Shown piece after piece: positions 1,871 through 57,237 of a DNA stretch of 64,000 bases. The position numbers and the translations under genes were made by a program. The notes under the pieces were generated by a model that was given only the letters and a program-made list of their open reading frames with translations, did not search any database and was not told the origin of the DNA. Numbering within the stretch: position 1 is the first letter of the stretch; every line of letters begins with the position of its first letter. The DNA comes from Eledone cirrhosa (lineage: Eukaryota), in NCBI GenBank assembly GCA_964016885.1, contig OZ024760.1, forward strand, positions 27,776,001 through 27,840,000, read 5' to 3'.

Positions 1871-1930
1871 TATTTTATTATAAGTATTTCAAGGATACTA
1901 AATTTTAGTGTGCTTTCATCAGATAAAATA
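1871..1930 (-). ncRNA. Type I hammerhead motif (left arm of palindrome 1826-2140)
   Basis: Minus strand: TATTTTAT-CTGATGA-AAG..ACTAAA/TTTAGT..CTT-GAAAT-ACTT-ATA-ATAAAATA; perfect 8-bp stem I. Confidence 0.7.
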
Positions 1931-2024: not shown

Positions 2025-2098
2025 TATTTTATCTGATGAAAGCATACTAAAATTTTGTGTCCTTGAAATATGTATAATAAATATGTATAATAAAATAA
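2025..2098 (+). ncRNA. Type I hammerhead motif (right arm of palindrome 1826-2140)
   Basis: CTGATGA 2033-2039, GAAAT 2065-2069, ATGT loop, ATA 2074-2076; mirror copy of 1871-1930 with a small tandem duplication. Confidence 0.65.
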
Positions 2099-2925: not shown

Positions 2926-3485
2926 GTATGTCATTTCAAATTTCTGTTTTTAAATTAAAACTCCTCTAACCTTTACTTTTGTTGTCATCCCTTTCCAGGA
3001 ACAAACCCTTCAAAGCATTTTAATCCTATGCTGTAAAGGGTTATGATGAACTGCACCCAGTTTACTCGGTAAAGGAAAGAAAGAATAGGGAAATATAGAA
3101 AAAGAAAAGAAAGAAAGAAGAAAAAAACAGGAAAGATGGCAAGATCTTTGGTGTCGCAGAAGAGAGGGGGGTGGGGGTGATTGGGCTTTGGGTCTAGGGC
3201 AAGGGGCAAGGGGTTGTTTGTTAGGAAAGGTAGGTACCAGGGATTCAAAAGCATGTGACAACCACCCTAGAGCTTCTTTTTCTCCTCCTCCTCCTTCTCC
3301 TCCTCCGTCTTCTTCTTCTTCTTCTTCTTCTTCTTCTTCTTCTTCTTCTTCTTCTTCTTCTCCTCCCCCCCTCCTCCTCCACCACATCTACAAATGCTAG
3401 ATACTCTTTTGTGAGATCCGGAACCTTCAAGCCTCTCACAACACAGCACATGTGCAAACCTTATCTTTCCTGCTTTTCCCCCTCT

Positions 3486-6400
3486 TCTAGATATACTGGC
3501 CCTCCTAGATATACTGGCCCTTCTTCTAGATATACTGGCCCCTCCTCCTAGATATACTGGCCCTCCTCCTAGATATACTGGCCCTCCTCCTAGATATACT
3601 GGCCCTCCTCCTAGATATACTGGCCCTCCTCCTAGATATACTGGCCCTCCTTCTAGATATACTGGCCCTCCTCCTAGATATACTGGCCCTCCTCCTAGAT
3701 ATACTGGCCCTCCTTCTAGATATACTGGCCCTCCTCCTAGATATACTGGCCCTCCTCCTAGATATACTGCCCCTCCTTTTAGGTATACTGTCCCTCCTCC
3801 TAGATATACTGGCCCTCCTCCTAGATATACTGCCCCTCCTCCTAGATATACTGGCCCTCCTCCTAGATATACTGGCCCTCCTCCTAGATATACTGGCCCT
3901 TCTCCTAGATATACTGGCCCTCCTCCTAGATATACTGGCCCTTCTCCTAGATATACTGGCCCTTCTCCTAGATATACTGCCCCTCCTTCTAGATATACTG
4001 GCCCTCCTCCTAGATATACTGGCCCTTCTCCTAGATATACTGGCCCTTCTCCTAGATATACTGCCCCTCCTCCTAGATATACTGGCCCTTCTAGATATAC
4101 TGGCCCTCCTTCTAGATATACTGGCCCTTCTCCTAGATATACTGGCCCTCCATCTAGATATACTGGCCCTTCTCCTAGATATACTGGCCCTTCTCCTAGA
4201 TATACTGGCCCTTCTCCTAGATATACTGTCCCTCCTCCTAGATATACTGCCCCTCCTTCTAGGTATACTGTCCCTCCTCCTAGATATACTGCCCCTCCTC
4301 CTAGATATACTGGCCCTCCTCCTAGATATACTGGCCCTTCTCCTAGATATACTGGCCCTCCTCCTAGATATACTGGCCCTCCTCCTAGATATACTGGCCC
4401 TTCTCCTAGATATACTGGCCCTCCTCCTAGATATACTGGCCCTTCTCCTAGATATACTGTCCCTCCTTCTAGGTATACTGGCCCTCCTCCTAGATATACT
4501 GTCCCTCCTCCTAGATATACTGGCCCTTCTCCTAGATATACTGTCCCTCCTTCTAGATATACTGCCCCTCCTCCTAGATATACTGTCCCTCCTCCTAGAT
4601 ATACTGGCCCTTCTCCTAGATATACTGGCCCTCCTCCTAGATATACTGACCATTCTAGATATACTGACCCTTCTAGATATACTGCCCCTGCTTCTAGGTA
4701 TACTGTCCCTCCTCCTAGATATACTGGCCCTTCTCCTAGATATACTGCCCCTCCTTCTAGGTATACTGTCCCTCCTCCTAGATATACTGGCCCTTCTCCT
4801 AGATATACTGCCCCTCCTTCTAGGTATACTGTCCCTCCTCCTAGATATACTGTCCCTCCTCCTAGATATACTGCCCCTCCTCCTAGATATACTGTCCCTC
4901 CTTCTAGATATACTGTCCCTCCTCCTAGATATACTGCCCCTCCTCCTAGATATACTGCCCCTCCTCCTAGATATACTGGCCCTTCTCCTAGATATACTGT
5001 CCCTCCTCCTAGATATACTGCCCCTCCTTCTAGGTATACTGTCCCTCCTCCTAGATATACTGGCCCTCCTCCTAGATATACTGGCCCTTCTAGATATACT
5101 GTCCCTCCTCCTAGATATACTGTCCCTCCTCCTAGATATACTGGCCCTCCTCCTAGATATACTGGCCCTCCTCCTAGATATACTGCCCCTCCTCCTAGAT
5201 ATACTGGCCCTCCTCCTAGATATACTGGCCCTCCTCCTAGATATACTGGCCCTCCTCCTAGATATACTGGCCCTCCTCCTAGATATACTGGCCCTTCTCC
5301 TAGATATACTGCCCCTCCTTCTAGGTATACTGTCCCTCCTCCTAGATATACTGGCCCTTCTCCTAGATATACTGCCCCTCCTTCTAGGTATACTGTCCCT
5401 CCTCCTAGATATACTGGCCCTTCTAGATATACTGTCCCTCCTCCTAGATATACTGTCCCTCCTCCTAGATATACTGGCCCTCCTCCTAGATATACTGCCC
5501 CTCCTCCTAGATATACTGGCCCTTCTCCTAGATATACTGGCCCTTCTCCTAGATATACTGGCCCTTCTCCTAGATATACTGCCCCTCCTCCTAGATATAC
5601 TGCCCCTCCTTCTAGGTATACTGTCCCTCCTCCTAGATATACTGCCCCTCCTTCTAGGTATACTGCCCCTCCTCCTAGATATACTGTCCCTCCATCTAGG
5701 TATACTGCCCCTCCTTCTAGATATACTGCCCCTCCTTCTAGATATACTGTCCCTCCTCCTAGATATACTGGCCCTTCTCCTAGATATACTGCCCCTCCAT
5801 CTAGATATACTGCCCCTCCTCCTAGATATACTGGCCCTCCTCCTAGATATACTGCCCCTTCTCCTAGATATACTGGCCCTTCTCCTAGATATACTGCCCC
5901 TCCTCCTAGATATACTGCCCCTCCTTCTAGGTATACTGTCCCTCCTCCTAGATATACTGCCCCTCCTTCTAGGTATACTGCCCCTCCTCCTAGATATACT
6001 GTCCCTCCATCTAGGTATACTGCCCCTCCTTCTAGATATACTGCCCCTCCTTCTAGATATACTGTCCCTCCTCCTAGATATACTGGCCCTTCTCCTAGAT
6101 ATACTGGCCCTTCTCCTAGATATACTGCCCCTCCTCCTAGATATACTGGCCCTCCTCCTAGATATACTGGCCCTTCTCCTAGATATACTGGCCCTCCTCC
6201 TAGATATACTGCCCCTTCTCCTAGATATACTGGCCCTTCTCCTAGATATACTGCCCCTCCTCCTAGATATACTGCCCCTTCTCCTAGATATACTGGCCCT
6301 CCTCCTAGATATACTGCCCCTCCTCCTAGATATACTGGCCCTTCTCCTAGATATACTGCCCCTCCATCTAGATATACTGCCCCTCCTCCTAGATATACTG

Positions 6401-9400
6401 GCCCTCCTCCTAGATATACTGCCCCTTCTCCTAGATATACTGGCCCTTCTCCTAGATATACTGCCCCTCCTTCTAGGTATACTGTCCCTCCTCCTAGATA
6501 TACTGGCCCTCCTCCTAGATATACTGCCCCTTCTCCTAGATATACTGGCCCTTCTCCTAGATATACTGCCCCTCCTTCTAGGTATACTGTCCCTCCTCCT
6601 AGATATACTGGCCCTCCTCCTAGATATACTGCCCCTCCTCCTAGATATACTGGCCCTCCTCCTAGATATACTGCCCCTTCTCCTAGATATACTGGCCCTT
6701 CTCCTAGATATACTGGCCCTCCTCCTAGATATACTGGCCCTTCTCCTAGATATACTGGCCCTTCTCCTAGATATACTGGCCCTCCTCCTAGATATACTGG
6801 CCCTTCTCCTAGATATACTGGCCCTTCTCCTAGATATACTGGCCCTCCTCCTAGATATACTGGCCCTTCTCCTAGATATACTGGCCCTTCTCCTAGATAT
6901 ACTGGCCCTTCTCCTAGATATACTGCCCCTCCTCCTAGATATACTGTCCCTCCTCCTAGATATACTGGCCCTTCTCCTAGATATACTGGCCCTCCTCCTA
7001 GATATACTGGCCCTTCTCCTAGATATACTGACCATTCTCCTAGATATACTGTCCCTCCTCCTAGATATACTGGCCCTTCTCCTAGATATACTGGCCCTTC
7101 TCCTAGATATACTGACCATTCTCCTAGATATACTGGCCCTCCTCCTAGATATACTGGCCCTTCTCCTAGATATACTGACCATTCTCCTAGATATACTGGC
7201 CCTCCTTCTAGGTATACTGTCCCTCCTCCTAGATATACTGCCCCTCCTCCTAGATATACTGTCCCTCCTCCTAGATATACTGCCCCTCCTCCTAGATATA
7301 CTGGCCCTTCTCCTAGATATACTGTCCCTCCTCCTAGATATACTGCCCCTCCTCCTAGATATACTGCCCCTCCTCCTAGATATACTGCCCCTTCTCCTAG
7401 ATATACTGCCCCTCCTTCTAGGTATACTGGCCCTTCTCCTAGATATACTGGCCCTCCTTCTAGATATACTGGCCCTTCTCCTAGATATACTGCCCCTTCT
7501 CCTAGATATACTGCCCCTCCTCCTAGATATACTGCCCCTTCTCCTAGATATACTGGCCCTTCTCCTAGATATACTGGCCCTCCTTCTAGATATACTGGCC
7601 CTCCTCCTAGATATACTGGCCCTCCTTCTAGATATACTGTCCCTTCTCCTAGATATACTGGCCCTTCTCCTAGATATACTGGCCCTCCTTCTAGATATAC
7701 TGCCCCTTCTCCTAGATATACTGGCCCTTCTCCTAGATATACTGGCCCTCCTTCTAGATATACTGCCCCTTCTCCTAGATATACTGGCCCTCCTTCTAGA
7801 TATAGTGCCCCTTCTCCTAGATATACTGGCCCTCCTTCTAGATATACTGCCCCTTCTCCTAGATATACTGGCCCTTCTCCTAGATATACTGGCCCTCCTT
7901 CTAGATATACTGCCCCTTCTCCTAGATATACTGGCCCTTCTCCTAGATATACTGGCCCTCCTTCTAGATATACTGCCCCTTCTCCTAGATATACTGGCCC
8001 TCCTTCTAGATATACTGGCCCTTCTCCTAGATATACTGGCCCTCCTTCTAGATATACTGCCCCTTCTCCTAGATATACTGGCCCTCCTCCTAGATATACT
8101 GGCCCTCCTTCTAGATATACTGTCCCTTCTCCTAGATATACTGCCCCTCCTCCTAGATATACTGGCCCTCCTCCTAGATATACTGGCCCTCCTCCTAGAT
8201 ATACTGTCCCTCCTCCTAGATATACTGCCCCTCCTTTTAGGTATACTGCCCCTTCTCCTAGATATACTGGCCCTCCTCCTAGATATACTGCCCCTTCTCC
8301 TAGATATACTGGCCCTCCTCCTAGATATACTGGCCCTCCTTCTAGATATACTGCCCCTTCTCCTAGATATACTGGCCCTCCTCCTAGATATACTGCCCCT
8401 CCATCTAGATATACTGCCCCTTCTCCTAGATATACTGGCCCTCCTCCTAGATATACTGCCCCTCCTCCTAGATATACTGGCCCTCCTCCTAGATATACTG
8501 GCCCTCCTCCTAGATATACTGGCCCTCCTTCTAGATATACTGGCCCTCCTCCTAGATATACTGGCCCTCCTCCTAGATATACTGGCCCTCCTCCTAGATA
8601 TACTGCCCCTCCTTCTAGGTATACTGCCCCTCCTCCTAGATATACTGCCCCTTCTCCTAGATATACTGGCCCTCCTCCTAGATATACTGGCCCTCCTCCT
8701 AGATATACTGGCCCTCCTCCTAGATATACTGGCCCTCCTTCTAGATATACTGCCCCTTCTCCTAGATATACTGGCCCTCCTCCTAGATATACTGCCCCTC
8801 CATCTAGATATACTGGCCCTCCTCCTAGATATACTGGCCCTCCTTCTAGATATACTGACCCTCCATCTAGATATACTGCCCCTTCTCCTAGATATACTGC
8901 CCCTCCTTCTAGGTATACTGCCCCTCCTTCTAGGTATACTGTCCCTCCTCCTAGATATACTGCCCCTCCTTCTAGGTATACTGCCCCTCCTCCTAGATAT
9001 ACTGCCCCTCCTTCTAGGTATACTGTCCCTCCTCCTAGATATACTGCCCCTCCTCCTAGATATACTGCCCCTCCTCCTAGATATACTGCCCCTCCTCCTA
9101 GATATACTGCCCCTCCTTCTAGGTATACTGTCCCTCCTCCTAGATATACTGCCCCTCCTTCTAGGTATACTGTCCCTCCTCCTAGATATACTGCCCCTCC
9201 TTCTAGGTATACTGCCCCTCCTCCTAGATATACTGCCCCTCCTCCTAGATATACTGCCCCTCCTCCTAGATATACTGCCCCTTCTCCTAGATATACTGCC
9301 CCTCCTTCTAGGTATACTGCCCCTCCTTCTAGGTATACTGTCCCTCCTCCTAGATATACTGCCCCTCCTTCTAGGTATACTGTCCCTCCTCCTAGATATA

Positions 9401-10991
9401 CTGCCCCTCCTTCTAGGTATACTGCCCCTCCTCCTAGATATACTGCCCCTCCTTCTAGGTATACTGTCCCTCCTCCTAGATATACTGCCCCTCCTTCTAG
9501 GTATACTGCCCCTCCTCCTAGATATACTGTCCCTCCATCTAGGTATACTGCCCCTCCTTCTAGATATACTGCCCCTCCTTCTAGATATACTGTCCCTCCT
9601 CCTAGATATACTGTCCCTCCATCTAGGTATACTGGCCCTCCTTCTAGATATACTGTCCCTCCTCCTAGATATACTGTCCCTCCATCTAGGTATACTGTCC
9701 CTCCTAGATATACTGCCCCTCCTCCTAGATATACTGTCCCTCCTCCTAGATATACTGGCCCTCCTCCTAGATATACTGGCCCTCCTTCTAGGTATACTAG
9801 CCCTTCTCCTAGATATACTGGCCCTCCTCCTAGATATACTGGCCCTCCTCCTAGATATACTGGCCCTCCTCCTAGATATACTGGCCCTCCTCCTAGATAT
9901 ACTGGCCCTTCTCCTAGATATACTGCCCCTTCTCCTAGATATACTGCCCCTCCTTCTAGATATACTGGCCCTCCTCCTAGATATACTGGCCCTCCTCCTA
10001 GATATACTGCCCCTCCTTCTAGATATACTGCCCCTCCTTCTAGATATACTGGCCCTCCTCCTAGATATACTGGCCCTCCTCCTAGATATACTGGCCCTCC
10101 TCCTAGATATACTGTCCCTCCTTCTAGATATACTGTCCCTCCTTCTAGATATACTGACCCTTCTAGATATATTGGCCCTTCTAGATATACTGCCCCTCCT
10201 TCTAGATATACTGGCCCTCCTTCTAGATATACTGCCCCTCCTTCTAGATATACTGTCCCTCCTTCTAGATATACTGTCCCTCCTTCTAGATATACTGGCC
10301 CTCCTCCTAGATATACTGGCCCTCCTTCTAGATATACTGGCCCTCCTTCTAGATATACTGTCCCTCCATCTAGATATACTGTCCCTCCATCTAGATATAC
10401 TGACCCTTCTAGATATATTGGCCCTTCTAGATATACTGCCCCTCCTTCTAGATATACTAGCCCTCCTCCTAGATTTACTGTCCCTCCTTCTAGATATACT
10501 GTCCCTCCATCTAGATATACTGGCCCTCCTCCTAGATATACTGGCCCTCCTTCTAGATATACTGACCCTTCTAGATATACTAGCCCTCCTTCTAGATATA
10601 CTGTCCCTCCTTCTAGGTATACTGTCCCTCCTTCTAGATATACTGGCCCTCCTTCTAGATATACTAGCCCTCTTTCTAGATATACTGTCCCTCCTTCTAG
10701 ATATACTGCCCCTCCTCCTAGATATACTGGCCCTCCTCCTAGATATACTGTCCCTCCATCTAGATATACTGTCCCTCCTCCTAGATATACTGGCCCTCCT
10801 TCTAGATATACTGTCCCTCCTTCTAGATATACTGGCCATCCTTCTAAATATACTGGCCCTCCTCCTAGATATACTGGCCCTCCTTCTAGATATACTAGCC
10901 CTCCTCCTAGATATACTGGCCCTCCTTCTAGATATACTGACCCTTCTAGATATACTAGCCCTCCTCCTAGATATACTGGCCCTCCTTCTAG
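3486..10991. repeat. 7.5-kb minisatellite, 21-bp unit TAGATATACTGGCCCTCCTCC
   Basis: About 355 units with a few 18-bp variants; source of the 2437-aa and 1066-aa ORFs. Confidence 0.98.
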
Positions 10992-11642
10992 CTATCTGTT
11001 ATTAGTTTCTCTTTCCTCCATTTTCTCTAGGCTCTTTCTTCCTTGCCTTTCCACCAGCATGTCACCCCCTGTCTTGGTAGGACCTTGTTCCAGTGGCTGA
11101 TCTGGCTTTTGGCGTCTGGCTTTTGGCGTCCTGTAGAAATTCCCCAATTTTTCTATCTATCTATCTATCTATCTATATGTCTGTCTTCTTTCTCTCTATC
11201 TAACCCCCTCTCTCTATATATATGTCTCCATCCCCTCCCACACATAGGAGAATATATAAAAAGGAGATCAATATTTATATTTTCATATATTCTCCTATGT
11301 GTAGAGAAAAAATACGTTGTTTTATGTTCTGGTATGTCAAATTGATACCATAGAACAACATCTGTACCATAAACACCCTATATATTTCCAGAGGTACTTA
11401 GTACCTATGGCAATATTGATCTCCTTTTTATATATTCCCCTATGTGTAGAGAAAAAATCCGTTGTTCTACCTAGCCACTAGTTTTAGTGGCGTGATAGAC
11501 AACACATTTATGTTTACTTTCGCTTATACTAAGGGCTAGTTCATGTGTAGGTCAAGTTTACGGCCTCATTCAATCCTGCACTAGCTGGCAGAATGCAATA
11601 TATTTTGCCGTTCGTGGGACTTTCGTTCTATGTAGGGGGAAA

Positions 11643-11724
11643 TGCTTTCTGAAGAACTGAACATTTCCATTGGAAGTCCATAGGACTTCCAATCTTTTGT
11701 GAGGTGAAACCATCGGTAAAAGCA
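11643..11724 (+). ncRNA. Type I hammerhead ribozyme motif
   Basis: Perfect stem I TGCTTT/AAAGCA; CTGAAGA 11649-11655; stem II includes 11-bp ATTGGAAGTCC/GGACTTCCAAT; GAAAC-CATCG-GTA, predicted cut after 11718. Confidence 0.8.
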
Positions 11725-11796
11725 AATGGAATAGGTAAATATTTAAATTATATTTTTTAATTTATTTTAAGGAATTGTTTGAATCTTACTTATTTC

Positions 11797-11836
<40 letters not shown>

Positions 11837-11882
11837 AAATAAAATAAATAAGTCAAATGTTTAAAATTTGGCTTCGTTTATT

Positions 11883-11937
11883 ACTGCTATATATATTTCG
11901 GTGACAGCCATCTTTGGCTGTGACCTCTTCAGGCAGT
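11883..11937 (-). ncRNA. Type I minimal hammerhead ribozyme
   Basis: Minus strand: ACTGC-CTGAAGA-GGTCACAGCCA-AAGA-TGGCTGTCACC-GAAAT-ATAT-ATA-GCAGT; perfect stem I, near-perfect stem II, palindromic stem III loop. Confidence 0.88.
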
Positions 11938-12089
11938 CCGAATTAGTGCGGTAGAGACGAGTACACATGTTGTTGAGGTGTTTAACTTTGTCAATACTCT
12001 GATATGCCCAGTTCCTGGTTGGGTTGTTATTTCACTGAGGAACAGGTGTTGGTATACAACCAACATATACTCAAAATATATATATATAT

Positions 12090-12669
12090 ATCATCATCAT
12101 CATCATCATCATCGTTTAACGTCCATATTCCACACTTGCATGGGTTTGGATGGGAGTTTTCCCACTTGAGGCAAGAGTGGTTGTCTTGCTCGCATAGGAC
12201 TGTCTGGCGTGTTTTCTATGGATGGATGCCCTTCCTAAGACCAACCACATTTACAGTGTGGAACTGGGAGGTTTTTACCGTGTTACCTACACGGCCACAT
12301 TACAGCGTGGACTGTGTGTTTTTTAGTCGTGACACCTACACGATCTCATTTGTTTCGGCCTGGATGTTGTGGCACCAACATAACTTTACGTATTTTGTTA
12401 GAGATACCTACTCTATTACTGAGTACCGCCAAAGATCTCGGTCCAGTGACATTGTCTTGGAGAGGTGTAAGTGTGTGAGGTCGGAATTTATCAAGTTGTC
12501 CCAGATTTTTCTGGGTCTGCCTACTCCGTGGCTCCCTTCTATTTTTATTGCCCTGCACTTTTTTATACAGCTGTCGTCTTTCATGCGCATCACGTGACCA
12601 TACCAACGTAGCCTTCTCTCTAGTAAACAACATCTGATCCCTCTTATTTCTAATTTTTCCCTTAGTTCG

Positions 12670-12885: not shown

Positions 12886-12955
12886 ATTATTTTATATTAT
12901 ATATATTTCAAGGGCAACCAAGGCAAATTATGGTGTGGTTTCATCAGATAAAATA
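12886..12955 (-). ncRNA. Type I hammerhead motif (same family as 1871-1930 and 56617-56682)
   Basis: Minus strand: TATTTTAT-CTGATGA-...-CTT-GAAAT-ATAT-ATA; flanks homologous to 1826-1960. Confidence 0.6.
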
Positions 12956-16436: not shown

Positions 16437-16494
16437 ATACTATGATCATTTCAATGACTCGGTTCAGTATGAATCCGGTGACATCATCAGGTAT
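16437..16494 (-). ncRNA. Type I minimal hammerhead ribozyme
   Basis: Minus strand: ATAC-CTGATGA-(stem II with CGG/CCG and TTCA/TGAA)-GAAAT-GATC-ATA-GTAT; stem I ATAC/GTAT; palindromic GATC loop. Confidence 0.78.
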
Positions 16495-54251: not shown

Positions 54252-54595
54252 TAATTATATTGTGTTGTTTATGACATAATAAAATATATATATTTATAGT
54301 GAAGGTGCATGGCTTAGTGGTTAGAGCATTGGGCTTGCAATCGAAAGGTTGTGAGTTCAATTCTCAGACTGGGTGATGTGTTGTTTCCTTGAGCAAGACA
54401 CTTTATTTCACATTGCTCCAGTTTACTCAGCTGTAGAAATGAGTACCAACCTGCCCGCCCGCTTATCTTATGGAAAAAAAGCACATAGCACTCACTGTAA
54501 ATAAGGTTGGGAAGGGCATCCAGCTGTAGAAATCAAGCCAGAATCAGTTCTCGTCCCACCCTTACAAGCAGGGAAAAGCGGATGTGAAATGATGA

Positions 54596-55520: not shown

Positions 55521-57237
<1,717 letters not shown>

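Follow-up and report, generated by a model that had tools for sequence, protein, structure and literature searches.

The hammerhead motif at positions 11883..11937 (minus strand) of the window, the whole 64,000-nt stretch of Eledone cirrhosa DNA analyzed here, is very probably the terminal-repeat ribozyme of a Penelope-like element with Hydra-clade motifs, lying in a TA microsatellite as part of a short insertion with two arms. By prediction, the ribozyme cuts only when two copies form a double hammerhead, which in a full-length transcript would likely join the two terminal repeats (pseudo-LTRs, pLTRs), and the isolated copy at this site is likely inert.

By sequence, the motif was confirmed as a genuine, intact type I hammerhead, parsed as in the initial annotation. 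The core is complete, with CUGANGA, GAAA and UH arranged around three helices of which stem I is open. On the minus strand, the 5' arm of stem I (11937-11933) is followed by the CUGAAGA core (11932-11926), the 5' arm of stem II (11925-11915), an AAGA loop (11914-11911), the 3' arm of stem II (11910-11900), the GAA core (11899-11897), the self-complementary stem III made of the 8-nt palindrome AUAUAUAU (11889..11896), A17 (11888) and the 3' arm of stem I (11887-11883). All 5 pairs of stem I and 10 of the 11 pairs of stem II are present, the exception being a single C-C mismatch. The predicted cleavage site follows A17 at the canonical NUH position, between 11888 and 11887, exactly where it had been placed before. 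The fold energy of the 55-mer was -17.6 kcal/mol (z = -3.09), a value equalled by none of 200 shuffles, and the pair probabilities of stems I and II in the isolated sequence were 0.72-1.0. The z-score dropped to -1.08 with 141 nt of context, and stem I was weak in longer contexts. Loop 2 differs among subfamilies, being AAGA in the 55-mer and AUGA in 802 matches.

The genome is TA-rich, stem III of this motif is itself a TA repeat, and an Rfam search at the locus found no hammerhead at the gathering score or at E <= 10, as would be expected of a chance hairpin next to an AT microsatellite. The comparative data contradict that reading, to which we assign next to no probability. A hammerhead descriptor search returned five motifs in the window, whereas each of 20 shuffled versions gave zero. 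The core and the C-C mismatch recur in a sister family, in which a compensatory U-A pair replaces a C-G pair, other families carry different palindromes at the equivalent place, and the position matches the hammerhead site described for Hydra elements (PMC8557442).

In folding predictions, stem III had a probability of 0.006 in the monomer, and cutting by the 55-mer is expected only from a double hammerhead of two copies. The initial annotation had stated that a palindromic stem III allows dimeric cleavage; in agreement with it, the minimum-energy fold predicted for two copies is exactly the double hammerhead, joined by an 8-bp stem III duplex (-42.4 versus -35.2 kcal/mol for two monomers). 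This fold was dominant with flanks of up to 20 nt and weaker beyond. Within a local context of 100-290 nt, the probability of stem I was 0-0.24; in the two longer of these contexts the palindrome was predicted to pair with flanking (UA)n, and in a dimer of the whole fragment the predicted probability of an intermolecular stem III was 0.0. With 110 nt of upstream and 140 nt of downstream sequence, the double hammerhead was probable in one of four real pLTR pairs (that of locus L134), and by this modeling a pLTR pair within a full element could form it. Self-complementary stems III were found in 33 of 37 motifs of other families (shuffle mean, 11.4; maximum, 21) in a scan that did not require a palindrome, although the 37 motifs are not independent because they group into about six families. 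In published work, the minimal hammerhead of Penelope-like elements was inactive as a monomer and had low activity as a dimer (Cervera and de la Pena 2014, PMC4209133), one of nine Xenopus hammerhead dimers cleaved, and the hammerhead of an Anolis Penelope element needed the element's protein for cleavage (Frangieh et al. 2024, PMC11167929).

The exact 55-mer is present in 997 copies in the 3.0-Gb genome, as opposed to 0 for the reversed control. A 27-nt half of it had 14,081 genome matches with <=2 mismatches, sister families possibly among these. The window holds one copy of the family, with neither a same-family partner nor a matching ORF. This copy is a 245-bp two-armed fragment within (TA)n. 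Its main arm (11832..12043, minus strand) is a 5'-truncated pLTR piece with ~95% identity to the pLTR of the full element L134; with the hammerhead start as reference, it covers -106 to +105 and terminates in a 3' end of class A, as defined below. The inverted second arm (12044..12076, plus strand) comprises the final 33 nt of an ~95-nt tail, spanning about +169 to +201, and terminates in a 3' end of class B; it was assigned from its sequence, its inverted match to the L134 tail and the pairing rule for the two classes of ends. The (TA)n target site is seen on both sides, as a microsatellite detected by Tandem Repeats Finder beside the main arm (11800..11831) and as a shorter run beside the inverted arm (12077..12091).

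The window copy is thus a typical truncated family member at an ordinary locus, since cutting is predicted only when two copies pair. The initial annotation, sound on the hammerhead type, the cut site and the dimer, had overlooked the retrotransposon behind the motif and had put this locus first among candidate active ribozymes. That ranking was not supported: the sequence is common to the family and resides in a truncated fragment lacking a partner in the window. An active window copy, cutting host or read-through RNA either by itself as a monomer or in trans with other copies, has an intact core and stems, thousands of near-identical possible partners and a dimer fold that dominates with <=20 nt of flank. 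We nevertheless give it very little credence: the monomer forms stem III with a probability of 0.6%, and stem I is as weak in the local context, and intermolecular stem III as absent from the whole-fragment dimer, as described above. Moreover, post-insertion changes affected 16 of 827 core bases (1.9%) and 155 of 5,448 flanking bases (2.85%), which does not amount to clear protection of the core.

Longer copies of the family run upstream via a 3' UTR of 1.3-1.4 kb into an ~885-codon ORF. At 39 places the sequence 3' of the hammerhead continues into the 5' UTR. Among 30 of these junction loci that were examined, 13 had an upstream direct hammerhead, with the upstream pLTR reaching a variable 34-383 nt beyond it. 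Fourteen long loci were selected from the junction loci. Nine of them contained two direct hammerheads 3.6-4.6 kb apart, and the distance from the cut to the ATG was 204-216 nt in two-hammerhead loci; a wholly open ORF was found in none of the 14. The ORF encodes the motifs RWK (aa 37), DKT (120), TLKDHK, YRDD (352) and CxCx5C (751), followed toward the C terminus by [LV]YG..YIG (770-785), CxxC (848) and CxH (877). Position 120 is DKT in L067 and L134 and DKA in L131. Read from broken copies, the domain order places the endonuclease C-terminal to the reverse transcriptase (RT). Searches of the longer ORF pieces against Pfam yielded sub-threshold matches only, among them a weak GIY-YIG at E 0.062, with no match to an RT and none of any kind for the endonuclease piece; a PDB sequence search gave nothing below E 0.23. 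The Atlas neighbours of the ORF, at 0.93-0.97, were eukaryotic clusters that carry HTH_animal, DUF8422 or RVT_1, some of them with RT domains.

These features are those of a Penelope-like element: RT and GIY-YIG-type endonuclease motifs in a single (broken) ORF, direct pLTRs with a hammerhead, inverted truncated arms and an optional tail. The ORF motif set is listed among Hydra-clade features by Craig et al. 2021 (PMC8557442), who describe canonical hammerheads and (TA)n targets in this clade and include the octopus element Hydra-1_Obim in it. As in that clade, the family has RWK, DKT in place of DKG, and an RT followed by a C-terminal endonuclease with CxCx5C, CxxC and CxH around E and N. The 3' flanks of the sampled copies and the window copy further indicate insertion into (TA)n, and the hammerhead near the 3' end, the tail at one end and the inverted 5'-truncated arms are likewise shared with Hydra-clade elements (PMC8557442). 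By eye, the RT tracks the Hydra rows of the published alignment. Motifs and this alignment comparison, rather than a tree, thus point to a Penelope-like parent with Hydra-clade motifs.

The family departs from the clade as described there in several respects (PMC8557442). Its units are 4.0-4.6 kb long, or 3.6-4.6 kb as measured between direct hammerheads, with the ~885-codon ORF and the long 3' UTR, and so exceed the <3 kb general among Hydra elements; its tail is about 95 nt as opposed to 30-40 nt; and its hammerhead has an 11-bp stem II and an even, 8-nt, all-AU palindromic stem III. It is a family distinct from Hydra-1_Obim, as both the protein and the hammerhead differ by eye. A literature search, with Repbase and Dfam outside its scope, found no published description of the element family of the 55-mer. 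The family is therefore new, whereas its kind is already known, hammerheads having been published for Hydra-clade and other Penelope elements. Two other classes were considered and rejected. The Naiad clade, first suggested by the endonuclease motifs, was ruled out by the domain order (Naiad elements have an N-terminal endonuclease and no canonical hammerhead). A non-LTR retrozyme would be a short, non-coding, head-to-tail tandem unit; the motif is solo in the window, and no close direct pair of 55-mers was present among the first 100 exact copies listed.

Like the metazoan Penelope-like hammerheads described in PMC4209133, this one is of type I, with a long stem II, a short stem I, G10.1-C11.1 and a palindromic helix III; it likewise occurs mostly in solo truncated copies and is predicted to act as a dimer. 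It differs from them in copy uniformity, ~1,000 being identical where the published set is heterogeneous, and in having an 8-nt stem III rather than the minimal form. With non-LTR retrozymes (Cervera and de la Pena 2020, PMC7229834; Li et al. 2026, 10.64898/2026.07.22.740005), it shares the type I hammerhead, the link to pLTRs and, for some families, the dependence on dimers. Unlike the elements in these reports, it is a fragment of a protein-coding element and not a short tandem array.

To characterize the insertion footprints, we fetched 60 stretches from the first 100 listed places and obtained 71 anchored copies. Their 3' ends fell into two classes, with 32 copies terminating at +104 to +111 (class A), 38 at +201 to +205 (class B) and 1 elsewhere. 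Back-to-back two-armed insertions were found at 30 of 110 loci. In 29 of these 30, an A end was combined with a B end; the remaining one combined a B end with another end, and neither A + A nor B + B was observed. At the 5' side, 24 of the 71 copies started at -106 to -119 and 18 extended beyond the stretch examined. The 5'-truncation hotspot, situated in the window at about 12043, coincides with a palindromic CATATG at the base of a hairpin; microhomology to (TA)n and endonuclease cutting are candidate causes.

That 24 of the 71 copies start at the CATATG site, with a similar cluster in a sample of 30 copies, might also point to a short, self-amplifying subfamily of ~230-320 nt, non-autonomous and resembling retrozymes or SINEs, that multiplies from tandem arrays. 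We consider this unlikely, however. The identical start cluster appears in different sequence subfamilies, other copies are continuous into the 3' UTR and the ORF, and the first 100 exact copies listed included 0 short head-to-tail pairs as opposed to 9 close inverted pairs. The window copy is better read as a truncated piece of the Penelope-like element.

Genomic copies almost never begin or finish at the hammerhead cut site. The 29-mer downstream of it occurs in 920 copies, and the base before the cut was A in 905 of them, a number among which cut-site starts that follow an A would be hidden. The 15 copies with another base comprised 12 small changes of the TA tract, 2 internal deletions and 1 junction with microhomology. 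A long TA run at stem III was found in 5 copies, 2 of which end there. Two uses of the cleavage products were examined and discarded: priming at (TA)n by the cleaved 3' end (ending in AUAUAUAUA) was ruled out, as only 2 copies end there, and run-off at the cleaved 5' end was unsupported, with 1 of the 15 non-A copies, itself showing microhomology, as its sole candidate. Because sequence continuity across the cut site is preserved in nearly every copy, we infer that the template is uncut or re-joined.

Two fixed internal ends combined with rare ends at the cut site fit the published initiation of reverse transcription within uncut RNA. Frangieh et al. 2024 (PMC11167929) reported two internal RT start sites for an Anolis Penelope element, the tail being the region between them, with both DNA strands cut and extended. 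In the same work, hammerhead mutants inserted unaffected, and uncut RNA was the dominant substrate in vitro. A tail frequently present at one end only was described by Craig et al. 2021 (PMC8557442). Like the Anolis element, PAc of the Poseidon clade, the family has a tail delimited by two fixed 3' ends past the hammerhead, inserts into AT-rich targets and has copies that run unbroken through the cut site. Unlike PAc, it is of a different clade: the PAc ORF starts inside the hammerhead and its reverse transcription inside the ORF, whereas both RT start sites proposed here lie in the 5' UTR before the ATG. In addition, PAc in vitro used its start sites without a strand difference (PMC11167929), whereas here the opposite arms differ in 29 of 30 insertions.

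In the mechanism suggested by these footprints, the protein of the element would nick both strands of (TA)n, and reverse transcription would begin at two internal RNA sites, at +105 for one strand and at +200 for the other. Both cDNAs would stop early and be joined back to back to yield a copy like that in the window, from an RNA template whose hammerhead is presumably either uncut or re-joined. Any cleavage that does occur would trim read-through transcripts to a unit beginning ~210 nt upstream of the ATG. Such cutting is probably slow or helped by protein, and insertion probably does not require it in cis.

Some shared variants may indicate a larger role for cleavage. A 7-nt duplication inside the hammerhead has 2 occurrences in the genome, which are the two direct pLTRs of L136 (positions 829 and 4998; G000:C2:16650357 and 16654526). 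The three hammerheads of L141 (G000:C2:81504316, 81505103 and 81509451) all carry G8U. These single cases show that a common source copy can underlie all pLTRs of an insertion. One RNA primed at two sites from both sides of a DNA break, with both terminal repeats rebuilt from a single hammerhead copy, would be such a route, most simply if a 4.2-kb RNA circle were excised by a double hammerhead between pLTRs; we regard this as a tentative proposal that is rather less than likely. In its strict form, the unit-length RNA freed by the inter-pLTR double hammerhead is ligated into a circle that serves as the normal template, so that cleavage is required and both pLTRs are regenerated from one copy by reverse transcription. 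We put this version, too, at roughly one chance in four. A circular template was put forward by Cervera and de la Pena 2014 (PMC4209133), and it is consistent with the duplication confined to L136, with the G8U common to L141 and with the variable reach, 34-383 nt past the hammerhead, of the upstream pLTR at 13 of 30 loci. However, the shared variants are equally well accounted for by gene conversion, by a template jump or by loss of the source copy, and each of these fits the data as the circle does. A G8U core would be expected to be incapable of cutting its partner site, and the in vitro preference of another Penelope element is for uncut RNA (PMC11167929). We therefore favor the Penelope-like insertion from an uncut or re-joined template.

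Core mutations common to all arms of one insertion were also seen at L180 (G8A+G12U) and L191 (G12A), in two copies each; the G8A+G12U variant was confined to the two arms of L180 itself. In the Anolis ribozyme, G8C abolishes cleavage (PMC11167929). The spread of a core-dead subfamily was ruled out, as the six G8U copies outside L141 belong to different sub-lineages among the 802 copies.

The window and the loci of the family contain further motifs and repeats. Another abundant hammerhead family is represented in the window at 1879-1922 (minus strand), 2033-2089 (plus), 12947 (minus) and 56625-56674 (plus), the first two forming an inverted pair; it has an AT-rich stem I and a stem III of ATATATAT or ATATGTAT. 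A mixed dimer of the 55-mer with this family's copy at 12947 was ruled out by mismatched stem I arms. At 11640-11725 (plus), about 160 bp from the 55-mer, lies a hammerhead-like motif with a long hairpin within a weak stem II and a stem III, ACCATCGGT, that resembles the one in Hydra-1_Obim. Hammerhead or hammerhead-like motifs of other families were also present at 16490 (minus), 16991 (minus), 54148 (minus)/54187 (plus) and 55122 (minus)/55376 (plus), the last four as two inverted pairs. The CUGAUGA sister family, which has the compensatory U-A for C-G replacement and shares the C-C mismatch of stem II, was found at L014 (upstream of the match), L069 and L086, and an RT fragment of a different Hydra-like family adjoins at L068 (8484-9044, on the opposite strand of the oriented locus). 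A tRNA-like match in the window (54308-54371, plus strand, 33 bits) is probably the head of a short interspersed repeat, and an array of a 21-bp unit, with about 360 copies in 7.5 kb, occupies 3480-10995.

A single motif of this type carries little weight, since the terminal repeats of Penelope elements, an octopus Hydra element among them, have well-documented hammerheads. More can be learned from the family than from the locus, in that its thousands of young copies constitute countable footprints. With one fixed end per arm, a near absence of ends at the cut site and private variants in both terminal repeats, these footprints make the question of a circular template testable by RNA analysis.
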